Shown here: positions 3,679 to 56,441 of the stretch, piece after piece
How positions within the stretch are numbered: the first letter of the stretch is position 1
How the letters are laid out: each line of letters begins with the position of its first letter
From: a virus
Virus record (IMG/VR): IMGVR_UViG_3300031576_000032
Coordinates: 6,188-70,187 of that record
DNA length: 64,000 nucleotides
Strand: one strand, 5' to 3'
The notes under the pieces: generated by a model
What the model was told of the DNA's origin: nothing
Seen by the model: only the letters and a program-made list of their open reading frames with translations
The model's database searches: none
Program-made: the position numbers and the translations under genes

Positions 3679-3690
3679 CCGCTCCCTCCC

Positions 3691-17021: not shown

Positions 17022-18508
17022 GGCTTCATCACCGCGTCCGCTAGCGACTTCGCCCCGAGAAGAACGTCTCGGATTCTTTCGTCGACCGTCCCGGCGCACT
17101 CGAGATCGACGTACGTCACGGAATGCTTCGTCCCGATCCGGTGCGCGCGGTCCTCGGACTGATACCGCTGCTCGTAGCTGAACGTGTTCGAGTAATAGAA
17201 CACCGTCTCCGCCGCGGTTAGGGTGACGCCGATTCCGGATTGTTGTTGCCCGACGAGGAACCGGACGCGGACGTCTTCCTGGAACGCCTGAACGTTGAAG
17301 TCTCGTTTATCCCCTACAATCCCTCCATGAAGTTCGACAACGGCCTCGCTTCCAAACTTCTCTTTAAGCCCGACCGTTATCGCTTCAATCTCCGTCCGGA
17401 ACCGAGCCCAGATAATCGCTTTCCCGGGATAGTCCTCAGATACAAGATCGATCAGCGCGTCAAGTTTCGGGTTTCCCCCTGGAACGGGCTTAACTTCGAT
17501 CTTTCCAGGGGTATACGCGACTTCGATCGCGTCGAGATCGACTTCGCCTTCTTGGATCGTGACGGTCGCCGGGACGAACCCTCCGAGAATTTGCTGGCAC
17601 CGAAGGAGCCGGACGATTTGAAGGTTAGCAAGAACTTCGAACGAGTCGAAGACGATTTCCCCGTCCTTCATAAGGTCGGCGTACATCTTCTTCTGTTCCG
17701 GCGTCATCTCAACGGCGACCCGTTGGTAGATCTTGTCGGGGATATCGAGACATTCGGCTTTCGTTTTCCGGTAAGAGTGATTCTGAATCTTCGACTTCAG
17801 TTCGTCGAGGCGGACGTACTTAACGAGTTCCTCGTAGGCTCTCGAAGCGCCCGCGGCCCGCGTGTACTGTTTCTCGAACACTCCGTACTGGTGTTTGAAC
17901 CCGTAGAACGACGTAAAACCGAGCACCGACGGGTCTAGGAATCGAAACTGAGCGAACAAGTCAAACGGCGTCTGCGTAACCGGGGTCCCGGTCATCGCGC
18001 GCCGGAACTTCGCGCGCTTCCCTAATAGGATCACCCGGCGCGTACGCTGCGACGTCGGGTTTTTGATTCGGCTCGACTCGTCGACGACCATCAGCGACTT
18101 TCGCTCGAGGAGGAACTTCTCGGCGGCGTCGAACGCTTGGCCCCGGTTTGAAAACGCTTCGACATTAATACAGAATATCGCGAGGTCCTTCGACTTTAGG
18201 AGTTCTTTCCAAGCCTTCCGCCAACGGTCCGTTTTCGCTTTCCCGGGGTCCCACTCGAGAACTTTGTAATCGCACCCAAGATGAATAGGGATCTCGACCC
18301 GGGGCCAGTTCCGATACACGACTTTCGGCGCGACGACGAGGACCCCATCGATACGGCCGGCAGCGAATAGAAGCCCGGCGGTGTCTAGAGCGATCTTCGT
18401 TTTACCGAGACCTTGTTCGAGAAAAATCCCGAACGCCTTTCGATCCCACGAAAGGTTTAAGCACTCGGTTTGATGGTCGTAGGATTTCGTTTTCTGTTTG
18501 TATTTCAC
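17018..18508 (-). CDS. SNF2-family (SF2) helicase
   Basis: EQGLGKT, VVDESSRIKN, MTGTPV, GIGVTLTAA, QSEDRAHRIG. Confidence 0.93.
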   Translation of the reverse strand: MKYKQKTKSYDHQTECLNLSWDRKAFGIFLEQGLGKTKIALDTAGLLFAAGRIDGVLVVAPKVVYRNWPRVEIPIHLGCDYKVLEWDPGKAKTDRWRKAWKELLKSKDLAIFCINVEAFSNRGQAFDAAEKFLLERKSLMVVDESSRIKNPTSQRTRRVILLGKRAKFRRAMTGTPVTQTPFDLFAQFRFLDPSVLGFTSFYGFKHQYGVFEKQYTRAAGASRAYEELVKYVRLDELKSKIQNHSYRKTKAECLDIPDKIYQRVAVEMTPEQKKMYADLMKDGEIVFDSFEVLANLQIVRLLRCQQILGGFVPATVTIQEGEVDLDAIEVAYTPGKIEVKPVPGGNPKLDALIDLVSEDYPGKAIIWARFRTEIEAITVGLKEKFGSEAVVELHGGIVGDKRDFNVQAFQEDVRVRFLVGQQQSGIGVTLTAAETVFYYSNTFSYEQRYQSEDRAHRIGTKHSVTYVDLECAGTVDERIRDVLLGAKSLADAVMKP

Positions 18509-19866
18509 GTCGCCCCTTTCGCGGACGAACGGAAGTTTACACCACCGCCGCGTCTTTGTAAACTCTTTTTTACGAATCGGAGGACGGAAGCGACCGCGCG
18601 CCCGGCGTTCCGACCGAACCGCGCCGCGGCTTCGTCCGCGCCCCGCGTTTCTGCGGGCCTCGTGCGGCCGAAGCCGGGGGGTCGCGGGTCCGAACGCGGC
18701 CGGAACCGGGAGGCCAGGGGGGAATTACGGACTACCCCCTGGCGACTCCGGTCGTCGACCGCGCCGACTCGAAACTCGGGGGGATCGACTCTTACCTTTA
18801 TCGTCGGCGTCGGGCTTCCCTGTTCATCAAGAAACGAAACAAGCGCGTGGCCGATTCGAAGGACGGAGATTTCGGTCGCTGGGTCTAGGCTCTTCCCGCG
18901 CGGCATCGTATCGGCCGCAGCCTTAATCGCGCGCCAATCTTTAGGCGTCGCGGCCCGCATCGCATGTTGTACCCGCGAACCAAGCTGCCCGAGAACGACG
19001 GACGGTAAGTCGCTTGGCGACTGAGTACAGAACCAGACGCCGACAGACTTCGACCGGATGATTCTTACGATTCGTCCTATCCGATCGACGAGCGGTCTCG
19101 GCGCGTCTTCAAATAGGAGATATGCTTCATCAATAAACATCGCGAGTTTAGGAATCGCGAGGTCCCCGACTTCAGGGAGATTCTCGTACAAGTCCGAAAG
19201 AATCCACGTCATCACCGTCGCGTATACCCGAGCGTTCTTTACGAGGTTGTCCGCGACGAGGACCGTAACGAACCCTTGCTCGTCATCGGTCTGTAGAAAT
19301 AGGTCGTCCCGCGCGATCGACTTCGGTCCGAAAATCAATCCGCCGCCATCGGCTTCAAACGTAGCGATTGACCTTCGGATCGCAGCAACCGTCGCGCTCG
19401 ATACGAGACCGTGATCGATCGAGACAGACTTCCGTTCCTCGTCGACAGACCGAAGGACTTCTTGTACGTCCTTCAACGTATCGAAAGGGAGGTTTTCGTC
19501 GGCGGCGTACCGAAACGCGACGCCGAGAACGTCGGCTTGAACGCCCGTGACGCCGATCGTGCGGGCGAACAACCCCGCCCCGAACCGGCGGACCGGCACC
19601 CGGAACGGATGGCCGCGCTTACCTTCGGGGTCCCAAAACACAGTCGGTAACGGTCGCGCACCGGAGCAAACTCCGGCAACGTCGCCCTTTACATCGGGAA
19701 CAAACGTCGGGACTCCGGCCCGCGACAATCCTTCGACGAGACGCATCATCGAAACGGTCTTCCCCGCGCCCGTAGCGCCAGCGATTAACCCGTGCCGGTT
19801 CGCGCGGGCCAGGGGGAGCGACGCTTCGGTTCCCTTATCGTCGCGGCCGAGGACGATATACGTCAT
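18505..19866 (-). CDS. HerA/FtsK-superfamily ATPase, DUF853 (YjgR-like)
   Basis: NRHGLIAGATGAGKT, DVKGDVAG, FIDEAYLLF, RSKSVGVWFCTQSPSDLP..LGQLGSRVQHAMRA. Confidence 0.88.
   Translation of the reverse strand: MTYIVLGRDDKGTEASLPLARANRHGLIAGATGAGKTVSMMRLVEGLSRAGVPTFVPDVKGDVAGVCSGARPLPTVFWDPEGKRGHPFRVPVRRFGAGLFARTIGVTGVQADVLGVAFRYAADENLPFDTLKDVQEVLRSVDEERKSVSIDHGLVSSATVAAIRRSIATFEADGGGLIFGPKSIARDDLFLQTDDEQGFVTVLVADNLVKNARVYATVMTWILSDLYENLPEVGDLAIPKLAMFIDEAYLLFEDAPRPLVDRIGRIVRIIRSKSVGVWFCTQSPSDLPSVVLGQLGSRVQHAMRAATPKDWRAIKAAADTMPRGKSLDPATEISVLRIGHALVSFLDEQGSPTPTIKVRVDPPEFRVGAVDDRSRQGVVRNSPLASRFRPRSDPRPPGFGRTRPAETRGADEAAARFGRNAGRAVASVLRFVKKSLQRRGGGVNFRSSAKGAT
18534..18562 (-). promoter_or_regulatory. 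Sigma70-like promoter upstream of SNF2 helicase
   Basis: TTTACA-N17-TAAACT. Confidence 0.55.
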
Positions 19867-26973: not shown

Positions 26974-27040
26974 ATCCTCCGTTGGTTTCGATCCGGGGGA
27001 CGCGCGAGGTTTTCTCGAGCCGTTCCCGATCGACCCCCGG

Positions 27041-27070
27041 ATCGTAACACCTATATATCGCTCTTGTAAA
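27041..27070 (-). promoter_or_regulatory. Sigma70-like early promoter
   Basis: TTTACA-N18-TACGAT. Confidence 0.7.
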
Positions 27071-27296
27071 TCCTTATTATCGGCCGATTCGATGAGTTTC
27101 GAAAATAAGTTTTGATGTTTTTGGGAGGGCAAAAGGGGCTAGTGGTAAGGAAGTTACCAGGGAAGCAAGCGAAAACGGCTGTGAAGAATGAGATTCTGGG
27201 GGAAGAGTTGGCACGGGAACGGATTTGGGTTAAGGAAGAAGGTGTCCTTATAAAGGGACGCAGATTCGGGAGGTTTTTGGGTTATCTACAAAGTCG

Positions 27297-27619
27297 GCAT
27301 CACATGCATCGGACGTTCTCATTAAAGTCGTTCTTCCGATGCCGCGGTAAGGTATTGCCAGGGTGGACGTTACGGATTTTGGCATCACATGGCATCGGGT
27401 CGGTTGGTTCGTCCGATGCTTACCAAAGCCGTAAAAACAAACGACTTAGAGGTCGAAAACTTACCACTGCCCCTTATATACAGTTTTTTTCAAGATTGAT
27501 TTTGAAACCAATTTCTGCACCTCTAGGACCGATGCATGTGATGCTTTCGTTTACCTGTAACGACTTAGATGGCATCACATCGGCTTCATATGGTACGTCT
27601 CATGTGATGCATGTGATGC
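27297..27619. repeat. Six copies of GCATCACAT in mixed orientation; candidate origin or packaging-protein binding sites
   Basis: Plus copies at 27297, 27382, 27572; minus copies at 27536, 27602, 27611; non-coding region between divergent units. Confidence 0.75.
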
Positions 27620-27828
27620 CTTACCCCTCCTGCGATATAGACCAAAAGAAAGAATGAAACGAAGTTGGCTCCAGCCTCCTTATAAGGAAGTGGTAAGAAA
27701 TTGGGCGGTTCTCCCTGTAGAGGAGTATATGGCTAGAAGGGCGTTCTTTCCCCTGGTTTATGGGAGGGCTATCATTTGGTTGTAAGAGCATGGATCGAGA
27801 AGCCAGAACCTGTATAATGAATTTTGAT

Positions 27829-28455
27829 ATGCGAAAGCCTACTGGAAAGCCGGTTGGGGGGGCCAACAATGTAGCTACGTTGGATAGGCCTGATGTGAGA
27901 ACCAGGAAGCCAGGAGCGGTGCGCGATCGCGTGAACGCGGGGTTCAAGTTCCCTGGAGGTTGGCGTCCCGGCATCGACGAACCTGCCGTGACATTGAAGA
28001 AAGCGATTTCCTTCCTGTCCTCCCTTCATGATAACGGGGGAATCGTTGATCGGGCTTGTAGAGAAGCTGGAATAACGAGGACCGCGGCTTATAGGTATCG
28101 AGACGAGGACCCAGAGTTCACTGCTGCTTGGGACAAGTGCGTTGATCGAGGGATCGACGTCCTCGAGGATGAATGCAAGAACCGTGCGCTGAACGGTGTC
28201 GCGGAGCCCGTGTTTTATCAGGGAGTTATCTGCGGTCACGTCCAGAGATACTCGGATGGGATGTTGATGAAGCTCCTGGCTGCTCATCGCGCAAAATATC
28301 GTGACCGCTCCGAGATCTCCGGCCCAAACGGTGGCCCGATTGCGATGGCTATCCAGATGTATATTCCCGAGAACAAGCGCGACCCGCTTCTCGAGGTTGA
28401 AATCGAGGAACAAAATCGCGTAATCTCGGACCGCGAACAAAATTCGCAAGAATAA
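27829..28455 (+). CDS. terS: Terminase small subunit
   Basis: HTH ACREAGITRTAAYRYR..DPEFTAAWD; EPVFYQG..RYSDGMLMKLL; EISGPNGGPI; start uncertain. Confidence 0.8.
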   Translation: MRKPTGKPVGGANNVATLDRPDVRTRKPGAVRDRVNAGFKFPGGWRPGIDEPAVTLKKAISFLSSLHDNGGIVDRACREAGITRTAAYRYRDEDPEFTAAWDKCVDRGIDVLEDECKNRALNGVAEPVFYQGVICGHVQRYSDGMLMKLLAAHRAKYRDRSEISGPNGGPIAMAIQMYIPENKRDPLLEVEIEEQNRVISDREQNSQE

Positions 28456-28577
28456 TCCCCTAGAAATCCTGCGCATATCTCCGCTGGCAGATGGCTTTTC
28501 TCTAGGTTCTAGGCTAGATCTCTGGGGTCCTACGAGGTTTTCGAGTACTGTTAGCGCTCGGTCCAAGGCCTAAGAAA

Positions 28578-28609
28578 AAGCCCGTTGGGTATATATACCC
28601 AACGGGCTT
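28578..28609. terminator. Intrinsic terminator between convergent terS and early genes
   Basis: Perfect palindrome AAGCCCGTTGGGTATATATACCCAACGGGCTT with A-tract on the left. Confidence 0.75.
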
Positions 28610-28614
28610 CGTGG

Positions 28615-28869
28615 TTATCGGCCGTTCCTACCGTGGTCGTAGGCCGCGTGGTCGATGAATCGGGCGAGGTTGTTAAGCGCGACGATCGCGGCTTCGACGT
28701 CCCACTCCGCGGTGTTCCGAGCGAGGATGTTGTAGATGAACTCGAGGTTGTCCCGAGCGATCTTGGGGTTAGAGAGGTTCTTGATCTCAACATTTTCGGC
28801 GTTTTGGATCATCGTGTCGATCTCGGCGATCGTTTCGTAGTATTCGGTTTCGGTTTTCCTGGACTTCAT
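28615..28869 (-). CDS. Hypothetical early protein
   Basis: AAGGAG RBS, ATG. Confidence 0.65.
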   Translation of the reverse strand: MKSRKTETEYYETIAEIDTMIQNAENVEIKNLSNPKIARDNLEFIYNILARNTAEWDVEAAIVALNNLARFIDHAAYDHGRNGR

Positions 28870-28934
28870 CTTTTCTCCTTAGGAAAGAAGGAACGCGGAC
28901 CGAGAATCCTCGGCCCGCGTTTTGGTTTGCTTTG

Positions 28935-29321
28935 CTACGCGTTTACCGTCGCGAGATCCTTGACGTCGGCGACGACGACTCCGTCTTCGACGAGTGTCCA
29001 CGTCTTCGTCGACCGGTCGTAGGTCGTCGCGACGAACGCTTCGCCCTTCGACCTCATCTTGTTGCGCATGATTCCAAATGCGACCCGGACGTTTGCTTCG
29101 TCGAACCCTGAAGCCTTGACCGCGTCGGCGAGGGTGAGGGACTTCCGCTCCCGGATCGCGGCGCGGAGGCGTCCGTACTTCGTGACGCGGGGCGGCTTTG
29201 GAACCTTTGGGGCCTTCGCCTTAGACTCCGTCGTCGGCGCGTTGGCCGTGATGTTGGCGCTCGCGTCGCGTCCGGAGACGCCGCGGGCGATCTTCCTTAC
29301 TTTGGCCTTGTGCTTCGACAT
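28935..29321 (-). CDS. Basic winged-helix-like early protein, paralogue of 31901-32263
   Basis: 48/67 identical residues to 31901-32263 in the core (hand alignment); own promoter. Confidence 0.75.
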   Translation of the reverse strand: MSKHKAKVRKIARGVSGRDASANITANAPTTESKAKAPKVPKPPRVTKYGRLRAAIRERKSLTLADAVKASGFDEANVRVAFGIMRNKMRSKGEAFVATTYDRSTKTWTLVEDGVVVADVKDLATVNA

Positions 29322-29394
29322 TTTTGAATCCTTCGTTCTCGGCCTCGGTCCGCGTCGGGGAGTTTCCTCGACCGCGTCCGATCCGAACAAAAGA

Positions 29395-29452
29395 ATAATA
29401 CCATCTCCGATACCGCTTTGTAAATACCTATTTTACGACTAATGAAAATAAG
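29395..29452 (-). promoter_or_regulatory. Early promoter with conserved upstream box
   Basis: TTTACA-N18-TATTAT plus CTAATGAAAATAAG box (also at 30455 and 31070). Confidence 0.7.
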
Positions 29453-29617
29453 AATTGCGGGGCAGCGCTCCGAGGAGGCCTAGGGAAAGGCTTAGGAATC
29501 CTGCGCATGTTGCGCTAGGCCGGAGGCGCTCGGACCGAGTACTGTTAGCGCTCAGACCGAGCGACGTGGGAGATGCAACAAAGAACTCCCGGCCGGTTAG
29601 GGCTGAGGGTTCGTTGG

Positions 29618-29938
29618 TTAAAGGTATTTTTCGAAGTCGACGGGTTCGTTGATCGTTGTGAAGATTGATTGGATCAACCAATTTGTTCGCGATTCGACTT
29701 CGATGATGTGGACCGTGCTGTTGTGGTCGTCGTTAGGGAACGGTGCGTCGAGGTTCTCGTGAGTGTTGATGAACTCCGCGATTTTTTCGAGCGCCGCGTT
29801 AGAGTACTCGAGGAGCCCGGTGATGACTTCGTTGCCTTTGTCGATTCGGTCGTCGTAGATATCGACGATTCCTTCGGCGGTGCCGAATGCGTAGTTCATG
29901 ATTTTGTTTTGGAGTTCCCGACGTTGTTCGTTAGTCAT
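29618..29938 (-). CDS. Acidic hypothetical early protein
   Basis: AACGGAGGAAACAACGATG leader identical to that of the next gene. Confidence 0.7.
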   Translation of the reverse strand: MTNEQRRELQNKIMNYAFGTAEGIVDIYDDRIDKGNEVITGLLEYSNAALEKIAEFINTHENLDAPFPNDDHNSTVHIIEVESRTNWLIQSIFTTINEPVDFEKYL

Positions 29939-30007
29939 CGTTGTTTCCTCCGTTCGGCCCTAACCGGCCGATTCATTACTCGGCCGGTTAGGGCCGAGGG
30001 TTTTGGG

Positions 30008-30343
30008 TTAAGCTGAAAGCGCGAGCGCGACGATTGTCGTTAGGATCGCGCGGTATCGGATTTTCCAAATCTCCATTCTAAGCCCGTCGTGCGCGTGGTC
30101 GAAGTCGATATCGGCCGCGCCGACGAACTCGTAGAAAGTTCTCCCGTTGATTGAGTGTTCGACGATCCGAGGAAATTGATCCAAGAACGAAGCGACCCGT
30201 TCGAGATCCGGAATCGAAAGATGTTTTGTAACTTCGTTGATCGGGTGATCGTCGTCGGCTTCGCAAAACTCAGGATTTAGCGACGATCCGATTTTCCAAA
30301 TTGCGTTCCACCGAAGCCGTTTGGTTTCGTCGTTAGGTTCCAT
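30008..30343 (-). CDS. Hypothetical early protein
   Basis: AACGGAGGAAACAACGATG leader. Confidence 0.7.
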   Translation of the reverse strand: MEPNDETKRLRWNAIWKIGSSLNPEFCEADDDHPINEVTKHLSIPDLERVASFLDQFPRIVEHSINGRTFYEFVGAADIDFDHAHDGLRMEIWKIRYRAILTTIVALALSA

Positions 30344-30411
30344 CGTTGTTTCCTCCGTTGACCCGTTCCCGTCGTCCGGTATATCCCGGAGCGGACGGAC
30401 CGATCGGTAAA

Positions 30412-30468
30412 ATCGTACGATCTTTTGCGATCTTTGTAAATACTAAAGACGGCACTAATGAAAATAAG
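30412..30468 (-). promoter_or_regulatory. Early promoter with conserved upstream box
   Basis: TTTACA-N17-TACGAT plus CTAATGAAAATAAG. Confidence 0.7.
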
Positions 30469-30673
30469 AATTGCGAGGCTATTTTCCGAGGTAGATGAGG
30501 CCTCAAAAAAGGTCTGGGAAAACTGCGCAATGGAGGTAGAAGAGATCGCTTGTGGCGTAGCCTGTTAGCGCTAATCGGCGTGGGGCGGGAGAGACCACAA
30601 AAAGACCCCGTCCGTTTTCGGGCGGGGTCCGTAGTTTCTATCGGGGCGGCGCGTTCGTTTCGAAGTCCCAAAT

Positions 30674-30958
30674 CTACCGTTCCGGTTCGAGACCAAACGC
30701 GGTTCGGATTAGGTCGCTTCGCCGTTGGAGTTCTTCGAGCGCCTCGGAATCGTTATCGTCGGCGCGTTCCGCAAGAAGATCGTTCGTCGTTTCCGGAACC
30801 GAGGCGGCTACGGAGATTACCCGGTCCCGTTCGAGGGTCTCGGGGAAATCGTCGTGACCTAATCCGAGATTCCCGAACCCGATCCGAGCACCGCAAATAA
30901 AATCGGCGATCCGATCGAGGGCCCTATTGAGTTCTTCGTCGTTTTCGTCGTAGATCAT
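30674..30958 (-). CDS. Acidic hypothetical early protein
   Basis: AAGGGGG RBS; own promoter and downstream hairpin. Confidence 0.7.
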   Translation of the reverse strand: MIYDENDEELNRALDRIADFICGARIGFGNLGLGHDDFPETLERDRVISVAASVPETTNDLLAERADDNDSEALEELQRRSDLIRTAFGLEPER

Positions 30959-31026
30959 CGTTGCCCCCTTCGTAGATCCGGTTTCGGTTCGTCGGTCGTT
31001 CCGAAGACACCGTACCGATCGGAATA

Positions 31027-31083
31027 ACGATACGACGTTTAGTCATCTTTGTAAATACTAAAGATCGCGCTAATGAAAATAAG
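31027..31083 (-). promoter_or_regulatory. Early promoter with conserved upstream box
   Basis: TTTACA-N17-TATCGT plus CTAATGAAAATAAG. Confidence 0.6.
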
Positions 31084-31094
31084 TATTGGGGGGC

Positions 31095-31314
31095 TGCGCA
31101 AGGTCTTCTAGGAATGAACGGAGGAATCTCCGTAGGTAGGAAAGCGTACTAAATTGCGCTGAATGAACTGCGCAATCTCCGTAGGTAGGGAGCGGAGAGA
31201 ACTGCGCAATTAGGCCTAAAATAGATCGCAAAAAACTGCGCAAAAGATTGCGCAAATAGGTAGCGAAGGGAGAAGAGAAAGTTGCGCAGGAAGGAGAGCG
31301 AAAGAAATTGCGCA
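31095..31314. repeat. Cluster of seven TGCGCA palindromes plus AATCTCCGTAGGTAGG direct repeat
   Basis: TGCGCA at 31095, 31169, 31203, 31237, 31249, 31283, 31309. Confidence 0.85.
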
Positions 31315-31549
31315 ATGAGCGCTAGAATGAGCGAAGGCGAGCCGGGGGGAGCGGAGCGCGCGCCGAGGCCGACGGAGCGAAGCGTTGCGGGAGGACGTGC
31401 CGAGGCGAGGCGAGGCGAGGCGAGCGGATGCGTGGAATGGGCGATGGAGCGCGGTAGGCCGAGGTTTAGGGGGTGCGGATCGGCCCCCGATATTCCGGGG
31501 GCCGATACCGCCCGACGGGGGCCGATCGGCCCCCGTCGTTCCGTCCCGT

Positions 31550-31768
31550 TTACCGGTCGCCGGGCGTTCGGATCGTCCGGGCGAACCGATCGTATTCCCG
31601 CCCCGTCCGAACGTCGAAAAACCGTCCGTCGCGGATCGCGATCGTCGCGTCCGAATCGTCGTCGTCGTTCGCGTCCACCGTCGGAATCGCGAACGTCGTT
31701 CCGGCGAATAAATCGCCGAACGCGATTCCGTCGTCGTCGTACCGCGCACCCCCGTTATTTCGTTCCAC
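31550..31768 (-). CDS. 72-aa acidic early protein in the AG/CT-free island
   Basis: GGGGG RBS, GTG start, TAA stop, followed by hairpin ACGGGGGCCGATCGGCCCCCGT. Confidence 0.6.
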   Translation of the reverse strand: MERNNGGARYDDDGIAFGDLFAGTTFAIPTVDANDDDDSDATIAIRDGRFFDVRTGREYDRFARTIRTPGDR

Positions 31769-31900
31769 CGTATAACCCCCGGATCGGCGGATCGGCGCGG
31801 GGGGAATCCCCGCCGTCGTCCCCGGTCCCCCGATCGTCCGACGCGCGGGCGATCGGGGGACCGTCCCGCCCCGTACGGGGCGGGATCGGTCGCGTTCGGG

Positions 31901-32263
31901 TTATCGGACGATCGCGTCCGCCGGTTCGGTCGAATCGACCGATTCGATACCGTCCGCGTCGCGGACGATCGTATACGTTTTCGTCGCGCGGTCGTACGTC
32001 GTCGCGACGTAATTCGCGCCGCGCGACCGAACCGGATTCCGTAAAATCGCGAACGCGACGCGGACGTTATTCGCGTCGAACCCGGACGCGACGATCGCGT
32101 CCGCGATCGTAATCGAACCCCGTTCCCGGATCGCCGCGCGTAACCGTCCGTATTTCGTCGCCCGGATCGGTCGTTCCGCCGCGTTCGCGTTTTCGTTCGC
32201 GACGACCGAATCCGCCGCGTTTCCCGTCGTCCCCGCCCCGTCGTTCCGTTTCGTTTTCGACAC
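31901..32263 (-). CDS. Winged-helix-like early protein, recoded paralogue of 28935-29321
   Basis: Clear paralogy; GGGGGA RBS, GTG start, TAA stop, downstream hairpin TCCCGCCCCGTACGGGGCGGGA. Confidence 0.8.
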   Translation of the reverse strand: MSKTKRNDGAGTTGNAADSVVANENANAAERPIRATKYGRLRAAIRERGSITIADAIVASGFDANNVRVAFAILRNPVRSRGANYVATTYDRATKTYTIVRDADGIESVDSTEPADAIVR

Positions 32264-32331
32264 CGGATTATCCCCCGTCCGATCCCGTCGCGTCGGGGTG
32301 GATTCCCCGCCCGCGCGTTCCGAACGACCGA

Positions 32332-32394
32332 ATTATACGATATTCCGCGTCGGGTGTAAACGTAAATCGTATCGGTTTCGGCCCCCGGTGTAAA
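32332..32394 (-). promoter_or_regulatory. Two tandem near-consensus sigma70 promoters
   Basis: TTTACA-N17-TATAAT (32360-32332) and TTTACA-N17-TACGAT (32394-32366). Confidence 0.8.
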
Positions 32395-32617
32395 ATAATC
32401 GGAACGTCCGTATACCGTTTCGATCCGGGGACACCCCCGGCGATCCCGTCGCGTCGTTTCGGCGGGCCGGTGCCCGTCCGACGGTTTCCGACGCGCGCGG
32501 AACGGCGGCAAGCGCCTCGGAAGAATTTCTAGGTTCCTGGATCCAGAGTCTCTATAGCTATTCCCATCTTCCTCGTTTACATTTTTCCCCAATCCGTGGT
32601 ACACGTTTAATCCACAC

Positions 32618-34051
32618 ATGCCTCTCACAACCGCAACAAAACTCCCCCCACGCCAATCCCAACATCCAACTCAGTTAGAAATCCGCCCCCAACCCGGCCC
32701 ACAAGAAGCTTTCCTGGCTACGTCCGCCGACATCGCTATATATGGCGGCGCGGCCGGGGCGGGCAAAACGTGGGCCTTGCTGATGGAACCGTTAAGACAT
32801 TTCCATCGAAAAGGCTTCGGCGCAGTCTTCTTCCGCCGCACGTCCCCCCAAATCACGGTCGAGGGCGGAATCTGGGACACCTCGGAAAAATTGTATCCCC
32901 TGGTCGGCGGTGTCCCGAAGTCAACCCTCGAATGGAACTTCCCAAGCGGCGTCACCTTCAGCATGTATCACATGGAACACGAGAAAGACCGTTTCAACTT
33001 CGACTCTAGCCAAATCCCGTTCATAGGATTCGACCAGCTCGAATCGTTCACGAAGAAACAGTTCTTCTACATGCTGTCTCGAAATCGTAGCACCTGTGGC
33101 GTCCGGCCTTACATACGCGGAACGTGTAACCCGGACCCCGATTCATTCCTTCGTCCTCTCCTGGAATGGTGGCTCGATAACGACACGGGCCTTCCGATTC
33201 TTTCCCGGTCCGGCATCCTTCGATGGATGGTCGTTCGTGACGACGTCGCTCATTGGGGTTTTTCGAAGGATGAGATGATGTCTCGTTTCGAAAATTCCCG
33301 GCCGTTGTCGTTCACGTTTATTCCAGGGAAACTTCAAGACAATCCGATCCTTATGGAAGAGGACCCGGATTACCTTGCGAAATTGGAAGCTCTTCTCCCT
33401 GTAGAAAAGCAGAGACTGTTGTATGGAAACTGGAACGCCCGCGAAACGGCCGGGACATTCTTCCGGAGAGAGTGGCTTGACGGAAAGTTCGTCGAGCCGC
33501 GCGACGTCCCAAAACAGTTCGATGCCGTCGCCCGGTACTGGGACCGCGCCGCGACAGCCGAGGAACGAGGAAAACGGAAGAAGGGTTCGGCGACCGCTAG
33601 CGTAAAAATCGGGCGGACCGGGAAAATAGGTTCGGCGGACGTCAAATTCTATGTCCTCGACGTTACGAACTTCTGGAAAGACCCGCAGGGTGTCCGCGCC
33701 GCGATTAAGGTAACGGCCGAAACCGACGGGCACGCCGTTACGCAATGGGCGGAGCAGGACCCGGGGCAAGCCGGAAAGTTCGAAGCGGAGGATCTCGTCC
33801 GAATCCTTATCGGACTCGGATTCTCTGCGAGAGCAAATAATGTTCGCGAATCGAAGGGGACGAGGTATAAGGTATTCGCCGACGCGGCCCAAGCGGGGAT
33901 GGTGTACGTAGTCAAAGCCCCATGGAACGAGCCGTGGATACGGCAACAAGAGAACTTCGACGGGACCGACGCGTGTAAGTCGGACATGGCCGACTCGACG
34001 TCCGGGGCGATTTTCGCAGTCGGAAAAACTAAGCGGTCGGGAACGTGGTAG
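32618..34051 (+). CDS. terL: Terminase large subunit
   Basis: PQPGPQEAF..YGGAAGAGKT, IGFDQLE Walker B variant, GTCNP, RYWDRAA, EQDPGQAGK, DMADS nuclease motif. Confidence 0.95.
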   Translation: MPLTTATKLPPRQSQHPTQLEIRPQPGPQEAFLATSADIAIYGGAAGAGKTWALLMEPLRHFHRKGFGAVFFRRTSPQITVEGGIWDTSEKLYPLVGGVPKSTLEWNFPSGVTFSMYHMEHEKDRFNFDSSQIPFIGFDQLESFTKKQFFYMLSRNRSTCGVRPYIRGTCNPDPDSFLRPLLEWWLDNDTGLPILSRSGILRWMVVRDDVAHWGFSKDEMMSRFENSRPLSFTFIPGKLQDNPILMEEDPDYLAKLEALLPVEKQRLLYGNWNARETAGTFFRREWLDGKFVEPRDVPKQFDAVARYWDRAATAEERGKRKKGSATASVKIGRTGKIGSADVKFYVLDVTNFWKDPQGVRAAIKVTAETDGHAVTQWAEQDPGQAGKFEAEDLVRILIGLGFSARANNVRESKGTRYKVFADAAQAGMVYVVKAPWNEPWIRQQENFDGTDACKSDMADSTSGAIFAVGKTKRSGTW

Positions 34052-43536: not shown

Positions 43537-44217
43537 GTGCCAGCGACGCGTCTCGAGAGAGTCCTTGGTCCGGGAGGGAAGCGAGCGACCCTCGTTTCGT
43601 CTCACAAGGCGTGGATCGTTCCGCGAATCTGGCCCGAGTCGACTGTCGCGATCCTCGGCGGGGGGCCGTCGCTTCCGTCGGCTGAGGATCTCAAGAAGAT
43701 TCCGCTTTCATGGAAGACGATCGCGGTCAACATGGCGTTTCGGTCCGCGCCATTCTCTGACGTTTTGTTCTACGGAGATCCCCATTTCCCGTCGATCACT
43801 CGTGCGACGGACGGCCCGACGATCGACGATTTCGCGGGGCTCGTTGTCACGCGCGTCGCTCCGGGAGATGGGAGCGCGATGTTCGTCGCGTGGGAGTCGG
43901 GGATCGATGGGATATCGAAAGATCCGACGCGACTTCGATGGAACCGATCGAGCGGCGCGTGCGCGATCGGACTCGCGCGGCATTTCGGCGCGAAGAGGAT
44001 TGTCCTTTTTGGGTTCGACATGCGAATCGTCGACGGGAGGAAGAACTTCCATTCGTGGTATGGACGCGATTTGAAGAATCCATTCGAACAAATGCTCGAA
44101 CCGTTCGGCGCGATTGAACGAGACCTTCACGAGGAACAGATCGAGTGCATTAACGCGACGCCGGGTTCTGCGATTCGATCACTCCCGATTGTTGACCCGG
44201 TGAGCCTCTTCGTATGA
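43537..44217 (+). CDS. DUF115/MptE-like Rossmannoid protein (glycosyltransferase-associated)
   Basis: VAILGGGPSL, IAVN, SSGACAI, GAKRIVLFGFDM, INATP. Confidence 0.7.
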   Translation: MPATRLERVLGPGGKRATLVSSHKAWIVPRIWPESTVAILGGGPSLPSAEDLKKIPLSWKTIAVNMAFRSAPFSDVLFYGDPHFPSITRATDGPTIDDFAGLVVTRVAPGDGSAMFVAWESGIDGISKDPTRLRWNRSSGACAIGLARHFGAKRIVLFGFDMRIVDGRKNFHSWYGRDLKNPFEQMLEPFGAIERDLHEEQIECINATPGSAIRSLPIVDPVSLFV

Positions 44218-44870
44218 ACGTCGTCTGCGTCCTGAAATCGGGCGGGGACTATGACGTCGGCGACGTCGAGAACTTGTCCCGGCAGATCCGGAAGAACTTG
44301 GACGTCGGCGCGATCTTCTGTTTGACCGACGTCCCGTTCGACATCTCAAGGTTCGAGAAGACGGGGATCGTTGTCGTGCGACTCAAATCAACGTGGCCCG
44401 GATGGTGGGCGAAGATGGAACTGTTTTCGATCCCCGGGCCGGTCCTTTACTTCGACCTCGACACGGTGATCGTTAGCGACCTTGCCCCCCTGGTGACGGC
44501 GATCGATGCGATTGGTCGCGACCGGATTTTAATGCTCCGGAACTTCTACGACCCGTCTCCGGGTTCCGGAATCATGGGATGGAACGGAGATTTCTCGTCG
44601 ATGTTCCGGCAATTTCAGGCTGCGGTCGAGACCGGGGACTTTTTGAAGCGGGGCGATCGGTGGACGTTTACTCACGACGGGAAAACGTACCCGGGGGATC
44701 AAAACTGGATCGCGGCGCGGCTTTCCGAGTCGAAGAGGGTCCCAGTGTTTGCCCAAGACGTAGTCGACGGGATCGTTAGCTACAAAGTCGGGTCTGTCGA
44801 AAAGAACGGGCTTCCTCCTGGAGCGCGGATCGTTGTGTTTCATGGGAAACCCCCCGGCCGTGGGAATTGA
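44214..44870 (+). CDS. Glycosyltransferase (GT-A, GT8-like)
   Basis: VCVLKSGGDY, GWWAKMELF, LYFDLDTVI (DxD), GDQNWI, IVVFHGKP. Confidence 0.8.
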   Translation: MNVVCVLKSGGDYDVGDVENLSRQIRKNLDVGAIFCLTDVPFDISRFEKTGIVVVRLKSTWPGWWAKMELFSIPGPVLYFDLDTVIVSDLAPLVTAIDAIGRDRILMLRNFYDPSPGSGIMGWNGDFSSMFRQFQAAVETGDFLKRGDRWTFTHDGKTYPGDQNWIAARLSESKRVPVFAQDVVDGIVSYKVGSVEKNGLPPGARIVVFHGKPPGRGN

Positions 44871-44892
44871 ATCCGGTTCCAGTGTGGATAAC

Positions 44893-45687
44893 ATGACGCC
44901 GCTTTGGTTTTTCTGGGGTCAGAAGCGAATGTCGTTCTTGCGGTACATGACGCTCCGTAGCGCGTGCGATGTTCACGCCGATGTGCGGATTATTGTTCGC
45001 GATGAGGAGCTTCGGCCAGCCGTGAAGTGGGTAGAGTCTCAGGACTTCATGAACAATGACGATGGTGCCGACTGGATGGCGGAGGCGATGAAACTGCCAA
45101 TCAGGGTCCACGATCTCCGTGAGATCGCGCCCGTGCTATCCGACCTTCGGGCGCCAGACGTCCAGACGAGCGACCTGCTCGCTTGGTGGATCCTCGCGAC
45201 GATCGGCGGAACGGTCTGCGATATGGACATCGTGTTCCTGAAGCCGCTCCCGGAGATTATCGAGAACGTTGAGGTCGCGCGTTGGGAGCGCGATGTCCAC
45301 CGATATGATTACCTTCCGATCGGATACATTCAGGGTCGACCACACGACAAGTGGCGTGACGCGTATGCGAAGGCGCTTGCGGCATATGATCCGAACGTGT
45401 ACCAGTCGTGCGGTGGCGAAAACCTCAAGCCGTGGCCGGAGGCCCGACTAAGCCCGTTCGTCGTGTACCCTTGGGCCGGGGCGGTCTACCGGCAGATCCT
45501 GGACTATTGCTTCAAGACGACTCACTGGCCGCCACTACCCGTCGCGTGCGTTGGGGTCCACTGGTACGGCGGTGCGTGGCAATCTGAGAACGCGCGGATC
45601 AACGGGCCGGACGACCTTGAAGCGGGTGCCGTCTCGTGGGCGATCAAGACCGTCCTCGCCGGTTCAGAAGTGGTGGTGCCGCGATGA
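44893..45687 (+). CDS. Glycosyltransferase (DxD, GT32-like)
   Basis: WFFWG..YMTLRS, SDLLAWWILATIGGTVCDMDIVFLKP, GVHWYGG. Confidence 0.75.
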   Translation: MTPLWFFWGQKRMSFLRYMTLRSACDVHADVRIIVRDEELRPAVKWVESQDFMNNDDGADWMAEAMKLPIRVHDLREIAPVLSDLRAPDVQTSDLLAWWILATIGGTVCDMDIVFLKPLPEIIENVEVARWERDVHRYDYLPIGYIQGRPHDKWRDAYAKALAAYDPNVYQSCGGENLKPWPEARLSPFVVYPWAGAVYRQILDYCFKTTHWPPLPVACVGVHWYGGAWQSENARINGPDDLEAGAVSWAIKTVLAGSEVVVPR

Positions 45688-46466
45688 GAGTCTCCGTCGT
45701 TAACTTCTGCTCGACGGCACTTGAGATGCTCAAGTTTTCCACCGAGTCGCTTCTTGAGAACGCGGGGACTGGCGATTTTGATTATCTCGTCGTGACGTGG
45801 AATCCCAGCCCAGAGGTCGAGGCTTGGCTCGATGCGCAGCCATCGATTTATCGCGCTCGGTACCAGACGGACAACTCGTTTGACTATGTTCCGAATCTCC
45901 GGAAGATGATGAGCTATGGGTTCAGCGAGGGCTATCAACTCAACGACTACGTCGTCATCGTGAACACGGACATGGCATTCGGCGAGTGTTGGCTTGAGAA
46001 TCTCGCCCGCCGCGCCGATGAGGACGTGATTCCCAATTCGGTCCACGTTACTCCAGTCGAGTCACCGTTCGTCGTCGTCGCAAATTTCGGCATCCCGACG
46101 CGCGAGACGTTCGATATGGCGCGCTGGGAAAAACTTCACGACAAGCTCCTCACTTCGGCAAAGAATGATGCCATCGCGCGTGGTTTGGACATGGTCCAGA
46201 CACCCGAGGATCGTGGCGGCGACTGGCGGTCGTGTGCGACGATGCCGTATGTCCTTCATAGGAAATGGTGGGAGCGGTTCGGCCCCTGGGAACCGAACCT
46301 CGATGGGCAGAAGGAAGCACCAGATCGGAGGTTCTTTGGTCGATGCCACGACGGTGGGGCGAAGTTCGTTCTCTGCTTGGATTCGATCTGTTATCATCAT
46401 GAAGCAGTAGAGCGACGCGGGTCGTGTCGGCCGATCGGGGTCGAGTCGATGAAAGCGGGGTTGTAG
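45684..46466 (+). CDS. Glycosyltransferase-like protein (GT2-like)
   Basis: YVVIVNTDMAF..WLENL, WERFGPW, PDRRFF, ICYH. Confidence 0.65.
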   Translation: MRVSVVNFCSTALEMLKFSTESLLENAGTGDFDYLVVTWNPSPEVEAWLDAQPSIYRARYQTDNSFDYVPNLRKMMSYGFSEGYQLNDYVVIVNTDMAFGECWLENLARRADEDVIPNSVHVTPVESPFVVVANFGIPTRETFDMARWEKLHDKLLTSAKNDAIARGLDMVQTPEDRGGDWRSCATMPYVLHRKWWERFGPWEPNLDGQKEAPDRRFFGRCHDGGAKFVLCLDSICYHHEAVERRGSCRPIGVESMKAGL

Positions 46467-47128
46467 TGGACTGGGGAACGGCGGAGATGGAATCGTTTTG
46501 GTCGAAGATGCATTCTCGGAACGACGGACCCGCGCTTACGGGATCTTCACTCGTGAGCGTTCGTGATACCCCCGGGCTTGGTACTGTTCCAATTCCGGGA
46601 ATCCATATGTTGGAGATCGGGGTCGGGCTCGGTCGGGCCACGAAGGAGATTCATGACCTTGGAGTCGTCGTCGATACGCTTGATATCTGCAATGAAGCGC
46701 TCGACCGAGTCGTCGACTTTACGCGGGCTCGATATCTTCATCGGGACATCGAGAATCTTTCCGTCGATGAATATGATCTCGCGGTGTCGCTCCTCGTCAC
46801 GCAGCATATGAGCGATCGTGATATCCTTTGGCAGTTCCCCCGCGTGTTCCGGTCCTTGAACCAAAAGGGCCGATTCGTCGTTCAGTGGGCGGGGTCGCGA
46901 ATTGACGGGGAAAACGACAATCACGGGACGGTCCTCGGGGAATACGGTCCGGTTGATGGGATCACTCCGGTCGGGATGATCTCGGGCCGTATGGTTAGGA
47001 GCGAATCGCATGCGACTTCCCTGATCGAGCGGTCAGGGGGAAAGGTGCTCGAGATCCGGGGCCGCCGCGAGTTTCCAGAGTTTAAGTCGTGCTGGTTCGT
47101 AACCGAATGTAGGAAAGTTGATGGCTAG
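46466..47128 (+). CDS. Class I SAM-dependent methyltransferase
   Basis: LEIGVGLGR, LDIC, YDLAVSLLVTQH, LNQKGRF. Confidence 0.82.
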   Translation: MDWGTAEMESFWSKMHSRNDGPALTGSSLVSVRDTPGLGTVPIPGIHMLEIGVGLGRATKEIHDLGVVVDTLDICNEALDRVVDFTRARYLHRDIENLSVDEYDLAVSLLVTQHMSDRDILWQFPRVFRSLNQKGRFVVQWAGSRIDGENDNHGTVLGEYGPVDGITPVGMISGRMVRSESHATSLIERSGGKVLEIRGRREFPEFKSCWFVTECRKVDG

Positions 47129-47846
47129 GGCGACTCTCTTGATCGTGGCGCGGAATCGCGCCCAGCAGTTCGCAGTCGCTATGTTGACGATCTGGAATCG
47201 GAAGTATAAGGACATCGACATCCTCGTCGTTGATGATGGATCTTTTGACGACACGCCGAGGATCACTAGGGATTTTAGCGACGTGATCACCAGGTACCAT
47301 CGGATCGATCGACCAGGGGGGTATCGTCGGAATCCAGCGGAGGTCCTTAATATCGGGCACGCGCTTTCTGAGACGGACGTTGTGATCGAGCAGGGAGCCG
47401 AAGTCTGTCATCTTACGGACTGCGTTACTCCTTTACTTGAGGGGTGTTCGTCTGGGACCGTCGTCCTAGCAAGAGTCTACAATGGACGAACGGAAGACCT
47501 CGACCGAGTGGAGTCGGCGCTACGGGCCGGAAAACTTCTTCCGTCGGTCCGGGATCATGTTCCTTCAAGTGTTCGAACGGATGGCGACCGGTGGCCCGTT
47601 CCTCGAGTCGACGTGCACGCGACCAGCGGGATCGGGGTCGATCTTTATTGTGGGGAGGAAAGAGCCGTTCCGTTCCTGTTTCTTGGGGCGAGCCATGGGG
47701 ACGATTTCTCCGCGGTCGGCGGGTATGACGAGAAGCTTTCTGGCCGGAACGATGAGGACCTTGCGAACCGGCTTCTCGGCCGTGGCGTCCGGTTCGTCTT
47801 CTCGAACCAAGCGATCGCGTTTCATCTTCTTCATGGAAAGTCTTAG
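47121..47846 (+). CDS. Glycosyltransferase family 2
   Basis: ILVVDDGSFDDT, VGGYDE, EDLANRL, AFHLLH. Confidence 0.85.
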   Translation: MARATLLIVARNRAQQFAVAMLTIWNRKYKDIDILVVDDGSFDDTPRITRDFSDVITRYHRIDRPGGYRRNPAEVLNIGHALSETDVVIEQGAEVCHLTDCVTPLLEGCSSGTVVLARVYNGRTEDLDRVESALRAGKLLPSVRDHVPSSVRTDGDRWPVPRVDVHATSGIGVDLYCGEERAVPFLFLGASHGDDFSAVGGYDEKLSGRNDEDLANRLLGRGVRFVFSNQAIAFHLLHGKS

Positions 47847-47848
47847 CG

Positions 47849-48133
47849 ATGGTTGAACCGGTATACGACTTCATTTGCTCGATCGGGGAGCTGATCGACA
47901 AGCTTTCGATTGAGAACATCAAGTGTTATGATGCGAACACAAGAGCGATTGCTGAAAGGAAGAAGACTGACCCGAGTGCGACGGTGATCGCCGATTGTGA
48001 AGGACAGGCCCGATCGTCGGGGGAACAGCGGGTCCGGCTTAAGAACGAAATAAATAGGCGACTCGCCGAAGCTATTGAGCGTGGTAAGATAAGGCACGCG
48101 GCGGAGACGCGGACATATCGGAGGGAATCGTAA
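47849..48133 (+). CDS. Small helical protein
   Basis: SIGELIDKLSIENIK..RVRLKNEIN. Confidence 0.65.
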   Translation: MVEPVYDFICSIGELIDKLSIENIKCYDANTRAIAERKKTDPSATVIADCEGQARSSGEQRVRLKNEINRRLAEAIERGKIRHAAETRTYRRES

Positions 48134-48141
48134 GGAGACCG

Positions 48142-49122
48142 ATGGTTGAGATTGTTAAAGATGCGGTTCATCGAATCGAGTCTTACTCGGTCGCTGGCTT
48201 GTTCCCCGCGAAACTCCTTCAGGGGGAGACTCTCCGTAAAGGCCGGATCGTCCCTCGGCACGTCCAGATTTATCTTACGAACGCGTGCAATCTCGATTGC
48301 TCGTTCTGCTCGTGTGCGGACCGGAAACTTACGGAGCGGATTCCCCCCGACGAGATCGAGAAAATCCTTCCGATGCTCGCGAGCTTGGGGACGGAGGCGA
48401 TTACGCTGTCGGGCGGCGGAGAACCGTCGCTTCATCCGGCGTTCAATCGCGTAATCGACCTCGCGCATGCGCACGGGATACGGGTTGGACTCGTCAGCCA
48501 CGGGGGGCTTCTTTGGAAGCGGCTCGAGTCAAAGAACTTGACGTGGGCACGAATCTCACGATCCGATGTGATGGACCAGTCTGGGGATTACTTCTCGAAC
48601 CTGTCCGGCGTTGTTCGGAAGTTCTCGAATACGGACTGGGCGTTTAGCTATGTTCTGATGTCCGAACCGATCTGGGATAAGATGCGTGAAGCCGTTCGGT
48701 TCGCTGGGGAGCATGGATTCAAACACGTTCGGATCGTGTCGGATCTCCTCGACCTTCCTAACGTTCCGTCTATGGACGAGGTGAAGTTCCAACTCGCGGG
48801 CGTCCCCGGAGAAGAGATCGTCATCTACCAGGGAAGGAAAGGATACACGGTCGGGCGGGAGAAGTGTCTGATCAGTCTCTTGAAGCCGGTGATCGCGGCA
48901 GACGGTCGGTTGTTCCCTTGCTGCGGGGCGCAGTACGCGCTCCCTGAGTCGAAACGAGACACCGTCGATGAAATGTGTATGGGCCGATGGGAAGACATGC
49001 CGCGGATTTGGGGAGATCAGGCAAACTTCAACGGATCGGCGTGCGTCCGTTGTTACTATGATGGCTACAATCAGGCGCTTGACTATATGACGATGCCTCT
49101 TGCGCATAAGGAGTTCGTCTAG
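48142..49122 (+). CDS. Radical SAM enzyme with SPASM/twitch-like C-terminal Cys cluster
   Basis: CNLDCSFC (CxxxCxxC), SGGGEPSLHP, C..IAADGRLFPCC..CVRC. Confidence 0.9.
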   Translation: MVEIVKDAVHRIESYSVAGLFPAKLLQGETLRKGRIVPRHVQIYLTNACNLDCSFCSCADRKLTERIPPDEIEKILPMLASLGTEAITLSGGGEPSLHPAFNRVIDLAHAHGIRVGLVSHGGLLWKRLESKNLTWARISRSDVMDQSGDYFSNLSGVVRKFSNTDWAFSYVLMSEPIWDKMREAVRFAGEHGFKHVRIVSDLLDLPNVPSMDEVKFQLAGVPGEEIVIYQGRKGYTVGREKCLISLLKPVIAADGRLFPCCGAQYALPESKRDTVDEMCMGRWEDMPRIWGDQANFNGSACVRCYYDGYNQALDYMTMPLAHKEFV

Positions 49123-56035: not shown

Positions 56036-56441
56036 CTTAGATCCGATCCGATCTGCGATCGTCGCTGAAGTTCGGTCGTTAATCGGTGTTCCATTTCTCC
56101 ATAAGGGGCGGACCCGTAATGGGATCGACTGCGTCGGGGTAATCAAGGCCGCGATAGAGGCCGGCCTAGGCCCGCAACCGGACTTCGACGATTATCCGCT
56201 CGTTCCGGCGTCGGTGGCCGTATTCGCGGCCTTGTCGGACCGCGCTGACCGGGTCCTTAAGGAGAACGCCCTCCCTGGAGACATCGTCGTCATGACGGTC
56301 GACGGGAAGTCGGCGCACGTCGGGATTCAGACAGACCGGGGCGTTGTTCACGCGACGCGGATTACGAAGCGCGTGACTGAAGATCGGTATGGGTTCCCCG
56401 TCGCGTTCTACCGGTTCCGGGGGGTTCCGGCATGTCCCTAA
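55983..56441 (+). CDS. NlpC/P60 peptidase (tail-associated)
   Basis: GVPFLHKGR..GIDCVGV, PGDIV, HVGI, VHA; start uncertain. Confidence 0.85.
   Translation: MSQVPIGSSTSQSLPKRNLDPIRSAIVAEVRSLIGVPFLHKGRTRNGIDCVGVIKAAIEAGLGPQPDFDDYPLVPASVAVFAALSDRADRVLKENALPGDIVVMTVDGKSAHVGIQTDRGVVHATRITKRVTEDRYGFPVAFYRFRGVPACP

Follow-up and report, generated by a model that had tools for sequence, protein, structure and literature searches.

The leading end of phage T7, about 1 kb long, carries tandem sigma70 promoters and gene 0.3, which encodes a small acidic first product. T7 DNA is unmodified and the phage encodes its own RNA polymerase; we know of no purge of dinucleotides in T7. In T5 and BF23, the available text of PMC10644984 describes a first-step-transfer region that is terminal, enters first, and is early, and whose motif content decides nuclease sensitivity. 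For Synechococcus phage S-B43, the available account describes CmoX, with an arginine (R350) at the position of M.HhaI N304, as a GC-specific cytosine carboxymethyltransferase whose product is amidated by the asparagine-synthetase homologue adjoining CmoX (PMC12783734). According to the available parts of the respective reports, the engineered M.MpeI variant N374K gains carboxy-SAM use (PMC13288465), and some groups attached at C5 hinder transcription by bacterial RNA polymerase, probably in the initiation step (PMC4838386).

An island without AG or CT encloses one transcription unit

We analyzed a 64,000-nt stretch of DNA (the window) belonging to a phage record of 70,187 nt with overlapping ends. 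The preliminary description of this DNA had reported that no AG or CT occurs between an AG at 31468 and another at 32511. Both borders were recomputed exactly, giving an AG/CT-free stretch from 31470 to 32508 in a gap of 1043 nt. A check for equally long runs elsewhere turned up none: the runner-up among AG/CT gaps measures 82 nt, whether the window or the entire genome is considered. The log10 E of the island gap is about -41 with window-wide frequencies and -36 after correction for local base composition, which predicts about 92 AG/CT sites in the gap. The flanks are AG/CT rich, as had been claimed (13 to 18 sites per 100 nt versus an average of about 10), and the G+C content is 66% in the island and 57% in the window.

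TG/CA occurs ten times inside the island, exactly at the positions previously listed and each time as CACC/GGTG; an extra CA at 32509 lies just beyond the border. Given the local composition, CT was observed 0 times versus 115.9 expected and CA 10 times versus 115.9 expected. CACC was not depleted (10 versus 12.8 expected), and CACG and CTCC were both absent (12.8 expected for each). CAT, CAA, and TCA do not occur either, and the reported absence of AAG, ATG, AGG, GAG, and TAG was borne out by a count of zero for each. The island keeps GAC (68), ATC (62), TAT (23), TAA (16), and GTG (10), and it tolerates GGTG while CGTG is absent. The exact rule, valid on both strands, is that CT never occurs and that CA occurs solely where CC comes next. 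Genome-wide, C followed by A or T (CW) is in deficit (junction O/E of 0.59 for CA and 0.72 for CT) with CACC not spared, which may be a host-like signature; as proof of a modification target, this depletion was rejected as weak. Outside the island, GGATCC, GGGCCC, GGCGCC, GCCGGC, and AACGTT are under-represented, which suggests ordinary restriction-site avoidance, and TGCGCA is over-represented.

The island has the following anatomy.

31470 to 32508, no strand: CW-free island (no CT/AG; CA/TG only as CACC/GGTG)
32366 to 32394, minus strand: promoter P1, TTTACA-17-TACGAT, CC after the -35 box (promoter scan)
32332 to 32360, minus strand: promoter P2, TTTACA-17-TATAAT, CC after the -35 box (promoter scan)
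31901 to 32263, minus strand: islA, predicted winged-helix protein of 120 aa, GTG start, TAA stop
31770 to 31900, minus strand: intergenic hairpins (z -2.5) and GGGGG ribosome-binding site of islB
31550 to 31768, minus strand: islB, orphan of 72 aa, GTG start, TAA stop
31471 to 31548, minus strand: two strong hairpins closing the operon (z -5.85)

The borders thus enclose exactly one minus-strand transcription unit made of promoters, two genes, and hairpins, with about 115 nt of DNA upstream of the tandem promoters still within the island. The promoter scan recovered both of the tandem sigma70 promoters that had been proposed, and the two GTG-start, TAA-stop genes, the GGGGG-type ribosome-binding sites, and the hairpins are all present. 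TTTACA is followed by CC in both island promoters, whereas the early and middle region has 8 further promoter-like TTTACA sites, none with CC after it. Likewise, islA and islB start with GGTG in place of ATG. The closing hairpins have no U tract and end at the left island border; they would act as the terminator. From these signals and from protein conservation, we infer that the island is probably expressed. The earlier view of a functional cassette is upheld by this anatomy together with the recoding of its proteins under the dinucleotide rule. We also considered the ribosome-binding regions of the island as type I-E CRISPR repeats, which we take them to resemble; Rfam gave no support, with 5 weak matches in 27000 to 32700, every one far below the gathering score.

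The proteins of the island are recoded

Two paralogues of islA are encoded in the same genome.

28935 to 29321, minus strand: islA paralogue in ordinary sequence, 128 aa
7765 to 8589, minus strand: third islA-family gene, adjoining the modification cluster

The model of islA (pLDDT 82; best structural match with Z 9.7, rmsd 1.5, and 60 aligned residues) is that of a winged-helix fold protein, and family and structure searches assigned it to no named family. Its own family comprises 143 matches among cluster representatives, and in several relatives, too, a member lies beside the modification cluster. In the relative G002 (L166), three islA-family genes were seen. In a word-indexed search, the own-genome paralogue was the sole match of islA, with none in annotated phages or viral contigs, and the island DNA gave chance matches only in annotated phages. 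IslB is acidic (16 D/E and 10 K/R) and had no match in family, Atlas, or structure searches.

Internal M, W, C, H, and Q are all absent from both proteins. We defined as forced any residue or residue pair that cannot be encoded without AG, CT, TG, or CA. Forced CW steps number zero in islA and zero in islB. Thirteen other genes of the phage have 10.7 to 19.9 of them per 100 aa, and none of the 142 homologues examined in the islA family falls below 9.6 per 100 aa. Over the 68-residue core shared by islA and the paralogue at 28935 to 29321, 20 residues differ, 12 of them on forced positions, which make up 17 of the 68 (enrichment P = 5e-5). The replacements in islA include W to Y, M to L, and EA to AN, and the CW steps of the core fall from 31 in the paralogue to 0, while islA keeps the conserved residues and the fold of the family. 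When both genes were recoded synonymously with the codon usage of the phage, none of the 5,000 trials per gene was AG/CT-free, the lowest counts being 10 and 3 for the two genes. Judged from these sequences, selection has changed the proteins too, not the DNA alone. The island is real, extreme, and under selection.

The island lies near a candidate genome end

Contig evidence came from two runs (X1 and X2) of one cave-metagenome sample. In X1, a single contig spans the whole island, and in X2 most of it is covered by several short contigs; the two sequences differ at one place, in a contig of depth 3. Contigs in two runs speak against a private assembly error. The segment is backed in both runs, if within one sample, and X1 is possibly the source of the window, so that this cover is not an independent replication. 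Host assignment yielded three MAG contigs, all of different taxa, and no host was inferred.

The following features surround the island.

27760 to 28455, plus strand: terminase small subunit, terS (phrog_4044, E 1.5e-29)
31027 to 31083, minus strand: early promoter beyond the island (14-nt box, 14-nt gap, TTTACA then AAG)
31070 to 31469, no strand: non-coding, purine-skewed, AG/CT-rich repeat block to the left of the island
32618 to 34051, plus strand: terminase large subunit, terL

The island sits in a block of leftward early cassettes between terS and terL. The adjoining repeat block, with six TGCGCA at 31095 to 31309 and a CGAGG tract at 31401 to 31424, would by analogy be a candidate injection-stop or terminal signal. 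Beyond it, an identical 14-nt box occurs at 29439 to 29452, 30455 to 30468, and 31070 to 31083, each time 14 nt before a -35 hexamer; the further hexamers with this layout lie at 30440 and 29424. The box, a candidate activator site, is missing from both island promoters.

In X1, the contig covering 28580 to 31424 has a depth of 77 and its neighbors have 36.9 and 21.7, a ratio of about 3.5 versus the 2 expected for a simple terminal repeat. The contig breaks fall on a 32-nt palindrome and on the CGAGG tract. In X1, the island belongs to a 63-kb contig for which only an average depth is given; since the CGAGG tract allele shown accounts for a depth of 35 and the mean of the bin is compatible with another allele about as deep, the raised depth may enter the island. 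In X2, the mean depth is about 3.1 for the bins between 28.0 and 32.4 kb and drops to about 1.6 between 32.4 and 38 kb; the island contigs have depths of 3.1 to 5.7, the deepest (5.7) ending at 32516. These depths suggest that a terminal segment is over-represented and that the island borders it. They also hint at a terminal redundancy of about 27.5 to 32.5 kb, with the right end entering first and the island promoters firing inward; this stays a hint, since contigs are unable to show an end, the ratio is above 2, and X2 is shallow. The earlier suggestion that the island is first-injected DNA is thus plausible, with indirect support from contig depth and from the terminase genes flanking the early block.

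Other observations concern this region and the rest of the genome. The 32-nt palindrome at 28578 to 28609 is perfect, and so is an 18-bp hairpin (z -7.7) at 29954 to 29997, immediately before a ribosome-binding site. Upstream of terS, 27296 to 27620 is non-coding and lower in GC, carries GCATCACATGCATC-type inverted repeats, and is a possible origin or packaging signal. Among the early genes, 18505 to 19866 encodes a HerA-like ATPase of the DUF853 type (Pfam HerA_C, E 3.6e-122) with its own promoter-like site. A late-region cluster of glycosyltransferase-like, methyltransferase, and radical SAM genes (43537 to 49122), whose products could decorate virion or DNA, follows the major capsid gene, and tandem paralogous GTA-type central tail/host-specificity proteins are encoded at 56432 to 58831 and 58858 to 62796.

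A C5-fold enzyme is the candidate writer of a proposed modification

The modification cluster spans the genes at 1584 to 7694.

1584 to 2081, minus strand: dCMP deaminase
2066 to 2794, minus strand: thymidylate-synthase homologue, Asp at the dUMP/dCMP specificity position
2791 to 3678, minus strand: N4/N6-methyltransferase-like protein
3691 to 5211, minus strand: C5-methyltransferase-fold enzyme, Lys at the motif-X Asn (carboxy-SAM position)
5211 to 5900, minus strand: dUTPase_2/MazG-like pyrophosphohydrolase
5852 to 7219, minus strand: glutamine amidotransferase plus asparagine synthetase, candidate CmoY-like amide ligase
7206 to 7694, minus strand: nucleotide-kinase-like protein (weak matches, below cut-off)

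We regard the C5-fold enzyme as the candidate writer of the avoided modification. Its model, of high confidence over about 400 residues, matches DNA C5 methyltransferases (M.HaeIII, E 3.8e-17; CmoX 8yf3, E 4.9e-15), and the catalytic Cys is present. A lysine is aligned with the Asn of the GNAVP of a canonical C5 methyltransferase, the M.HhaI N304 position. This lysine is invariant in 42/42 homologues of one alignment (A4), the pattern of the carboxy-SAM position is matched by 112/120 homologues, and every relative whose alignment reached motif X has Lys or Arg there. By analogy, the phage enzyme probably works like CmoX. The family is large (541 matches at E ≤ 1e-40) and has HPEC/MDDL where the CmoX type has SPPC/ENV, HPEC being found in 114/120 homologues. 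The clade (3691 to 5211, P0270 to P0389), marked by HPEC, MDDL, and Lys/Arg, also has four conserved C-terminal cysteines, and the relative G006 (L088) has two copies of the enzyme. Several homologues combine the C5 enzyme in one protein with an N4/N6-methyltransferase-like Pfam domain, which might supply an alternative cofactor. A cmoA gene (TIGR00740) was found neither in the genome itself nor in any of 19 relatives (0/19), and carboxy-SAM may come from the host or from a non-orthologous source.

The asparagine synthetase at 5852 to 7219 has an N-terminal MCG and an SGGLDS motif. It also occurs in G003 and in the gut phages L125 and L126 without a detectable C5 enzyme, so that the product is uncertain and the synthetase may serve the thymidylate-synthase branch. 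In that branch, the thymidylate-synthase homologue has an invariant Asp (D200) at E. coli ThyA N177, which the available text of PMC8670742 gives as the criterion for dCMP specificity; L143 and related positions were taken from that of PMC13326640. An invariant Asp in RSCD corresponds to ThyA D169, so that the protein lacks the signature of 5-hydroxy-dCMP synthases. An unusual invariant Arg is found three residues ahead of the catalytic Cys, roughly where L143 would lie, and it adds to the uncertainty about the product. The family of this homologue gave 401 matches at E ≤ 1e-30, and the Clostridium phages CP3, CPD4, and P21 match at 37%.

Related phages carry islands with another rule

We searched the recorded sequence of 37 related viruses for islands, in full or almost in full. 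A motif scan covered 148 motifs in 182 loci (3.19 Mb including overlaps); gut-phage loci L125 to L163 and metagenome terL loci L182 to L261 stood outside it and were scanned for single dinucleotides, and L001 to L080 were scanned separately. Close relatives with the same island were not found in this set. The scans of terL relatives, which were distant (about 40 to 55%, higher only on short partial matches), gave no dinucleotide islands, and those based on the portal and the asparagine synthetase gave no island either.

A different island was found in G010, a complete genome of 66.7 kb with the same cluster and the Arg variant of the C5 enzyme, a diverged copy with 38% identity. Here, 377 nt are free of CC, GG, CT, and AG (log10 E -20, runner-up -9). 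This island (L265:1462-1884) is a 179-nt tandem duplication, with 0 such steps versus 25.1 and 25.5 expected per unit; it is flanked by a RusA-like gene on one side and by terS-terL on the other, and it ends at a TTGACA promoter. At the same place upstream of terS, G012, which also has the Arg variant, shows 1 such step versus 20.7 expected over 184 nt (L276:1169-1354), in a window that was chosen by eye after the scan and that alone scores just -2.4. Both islands look non-coding, and the avoided class is C plus C or T (CY) in G010 and G012 versus CW here. The search for an island in related phages that had been proposed earlier brought up islands next to terS that follow this different rule.

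Among the relatives with the C5 enzyme that are at least 90% complete, some of whose records are near-duplicates, 1/14 has an island (G010). Fifteen relatives of the G010 terminase, chosen by terminase and not by modification genes, had no such island. Target motifs longer than dinucleotides would leave no detectable island. Several other candidates were set aside. The most similar dinucleotide profile belongs to G001, a fragment (43%) without a terL match; a CAG/CTG gap in L280 and an AG/CT gap in L378 (25% G+C) were viewed in sequence and not counted as islands, and nor were gaps of TAC, SGC, and CGW with log E of -6 to -9.

Proposed avoidance of the phage's own modification and alternatives to it

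We propose that the phage's own modification finds no target in the island, which keeps the first-entering operon unmodified, and we give this reading a probability of roughly 55%. Own cytosine modification with CA/CT as its context was one of two hypotheses in the preliminary description. It has gained a C5-fold enzyme with the telling lysine and the CY rule beside terS in G010 and G012, and the target context would be the one that the sequence pattern suggests. The rule is centered on C, holds on both strands, concerns the +1 base, and takes another form alongside a diverged enzyme, for which the simplest single cause would be that the rule equals the enzyme's target and that modification has to be kept off the DNA close to the genome end. 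In addition, the purge of a whole operon at a cost in protein suggests that what matters is whether the first-entering DNA is expressed or survives.

Late in infection, the C5 enzyme would put a bulky C5 group, probably carboxymethyl and possibly amidated by the neighboring amidotransferase, on C before A or T, sparing CACC. The operon near the first-entering end would have to be unmodified for immediate firing by the as yet untouched host sigma70 RNA polymerase; an alternative or additional purpose, equally possible, would be that modification-dependent nucleases ignore the island. Selection would have removed each target, amino-acid changes included, and the CA that -35 boxes and start codons cannot do without would have moved into the spared CACC context. 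The products of islA and islB could then allow the modified rest of the genome to be expressed or to enter, for instance via the 14-nt box at the three downstream promoters. Only in the island would the C of a -35 box escape modification, and other promoters would be licensed by the island products or used after replication. Several points speak against own modification as the cause. Eight other promoters of the same class stand in CW-containing DNA, islands are rare (1/14 near-complete enzyme-bearing relatives plus G012), and the base after C would be irrelevant if the thymidylate-synthase branch acted on every C ahead of replication. The missing cmoA, the low identity to CmoX, the occurrence of the asparagine synthetase apart from the C5 enzyme, a genome-wide CW deficit in which CACC is not spared, the non-coding look of the G010 and G012 islands, and a depth ratio above that of a simple terminal repeat weigh on the same side. 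No sigma factor was found above the cut-off in the phage.

Alternatively, the first-entering kilobase may evade a host defense that needs a WG/CW motif, such as a type I-E-like PAM, a short-motif nuclease, or a DNA-modifying toxin, and that reaches no further than this kilobase. Repeated escape would have stripped the kilobase of all such motifs, and the island products would then protect the rest in a T5-like manner. We consider this unlikely, although lethal selection of this kind could account for the changed amino acids, and islands would be rare among relatives if they depended on the host. According to the available text of PMC10644984, moreover, T5-like phages resist R-M and CRISPR unless the sites lie in the first-step-transfer region. 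The earlier hypothesis of evasion of E. coli type I-E interference is weakened. The five strong PAMs (AAG, ATG, AGG, GAG, and TAG) are all missing from the island, but GAC, ATC, TAT, TAA, and GTG remain, and these support priming or interference in E. coli according to the text of PMC6568314, whose PAM set may not be that of the phage host. Furthermore, a 3-nt PAM does not account for both the tolerance of GGTG and the absence of CGTG. The G010 and G012 islands are non-coding in appearance, and their CY rule removes GG and keeps TG, thereby departing from the WG core of E. coli PAMs. We know of no host system that targets all CW.

The phage might also avoid its own modification for the sake of packaging or end processing, the operon merely lying inside that zone; terminase recognition, cutting, terminal-repeat copying, or end joining would then need unmodified DNA. 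All three islands adjoin terminase genes, and those of G010 and G012, placed immediately before terS, would fit such a role. We nevertheless hold this to be improbable: the 1-kb zone here coincides with a whole transcription unit, two genes purged at a cost in protein exceed the needs of a pac or cos site, and the 15 relatives of the G010 terminase (selected as stated above) have no island. A local mutational process or an assembly artefact, for which the higher G+C of the island and the origin of the reads from one sample could be cited, is largely refuted and very improbable, because both runs carry the island with a single difference in a depth-3 contig, the recoded protein retains the conserved residues and fold of its family, needed CA steps persist only as CACC, and synonymous recoding never reached zero AG/CT.

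Returning to avoidance of the phage's own modification, we tentatively extend it, at somewhat less than even odds, to a general proposal. Phages of the Lys/Arg C5 clade would hard-wire an unmodifiable end window by target deletion, at the cost of five amino acids; the rule would read out the specificity of the enzyme, and islA and islB would make hypermodified DNA readable by host RNA polymerase. If true, such a phage resolves the conflict between armoring and readability on entry by sequence design alone, and selection on DNA chemistry overrides protein sequence. The predicted C5 specificities would be CW minus CACC here and CY in G010, and carboxymethyltransferases specific for neither CpG nor GpC would be useful sequencing reagents. 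Scans for motif-free islands could reveal modification motifs and genome ends generally.

Comparison with known systems

By title and abstract, and with incomplete coverage of the literature, we found no published phage region purged of whole dinucleotide classes and no published self-modification-free phage window. Even under the host-evasion reading, we found no precedent for the complete dinucleotide purge of an operon. With the leading end of T7, the island shares a length of about a kilobase and tandem sigma70 promoters. IslB resembles the product of T7 gene 0.3 in being small and acidic, but it is without a family match.

The first-step-transfer region of T5 and BF23 ends in a non-coding stop region, and here, too, a non-coding repeat block adjoins the island. 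However, that region is about 9.7 kb long and the island is 1 kb with two genes; restriction sites matter there, not whole dinucleotide classes, and the available text of PMC10644984 describes neither hypermodification nor protein recoding. The terminase of the phage studied here is of a different family from that of T5 and BF23, and two-step injection is hypothetical in our phage.

With the T4-type dCMP hydroxymethylase kit and the dCMP methylase clusters, as the available texts present them (PMC8670742, PMC13326640), the cluster shares Asp177, a pyrophosphohydrolase, a kinase, and a deaminase. Unlike 5-hydroxy-dCMP synthases, the homologue here keeps Asp169, and it has the invariant Arg at about L143.

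Compared with the available account of the CmoA-CmoX-CmoY system (PMC12783734), our phage falls outside that system by the definition given there. The search used for CmoX asked for SPPC and Arg350, and the phage enzyme has HPEC and, as in M.MpeI N374K, Lys; its identity to CmoX is 17%. The described system has cmoA, absent here and from all 19 relatives. The phage enzyme, unlike the S-B43 system, is embedded in a thymidylate-synthase/MazG/kinase/deaminase cluster, and a motif-free region is not described for S-B43 in that account. CmoX is dinucleotide-specific (GC) and post-replicative, and the target proposed here is CW. The two nevertheless share a C5 fold with a basic residue at M.HhaI N304 and an adjoining asparagine-synthetase homologue (5852 to 7219 here), and just as the same source mentions a ligase cluster with a glutamine amidase domain, the candidate ligase of our phage has an amidotransferase.
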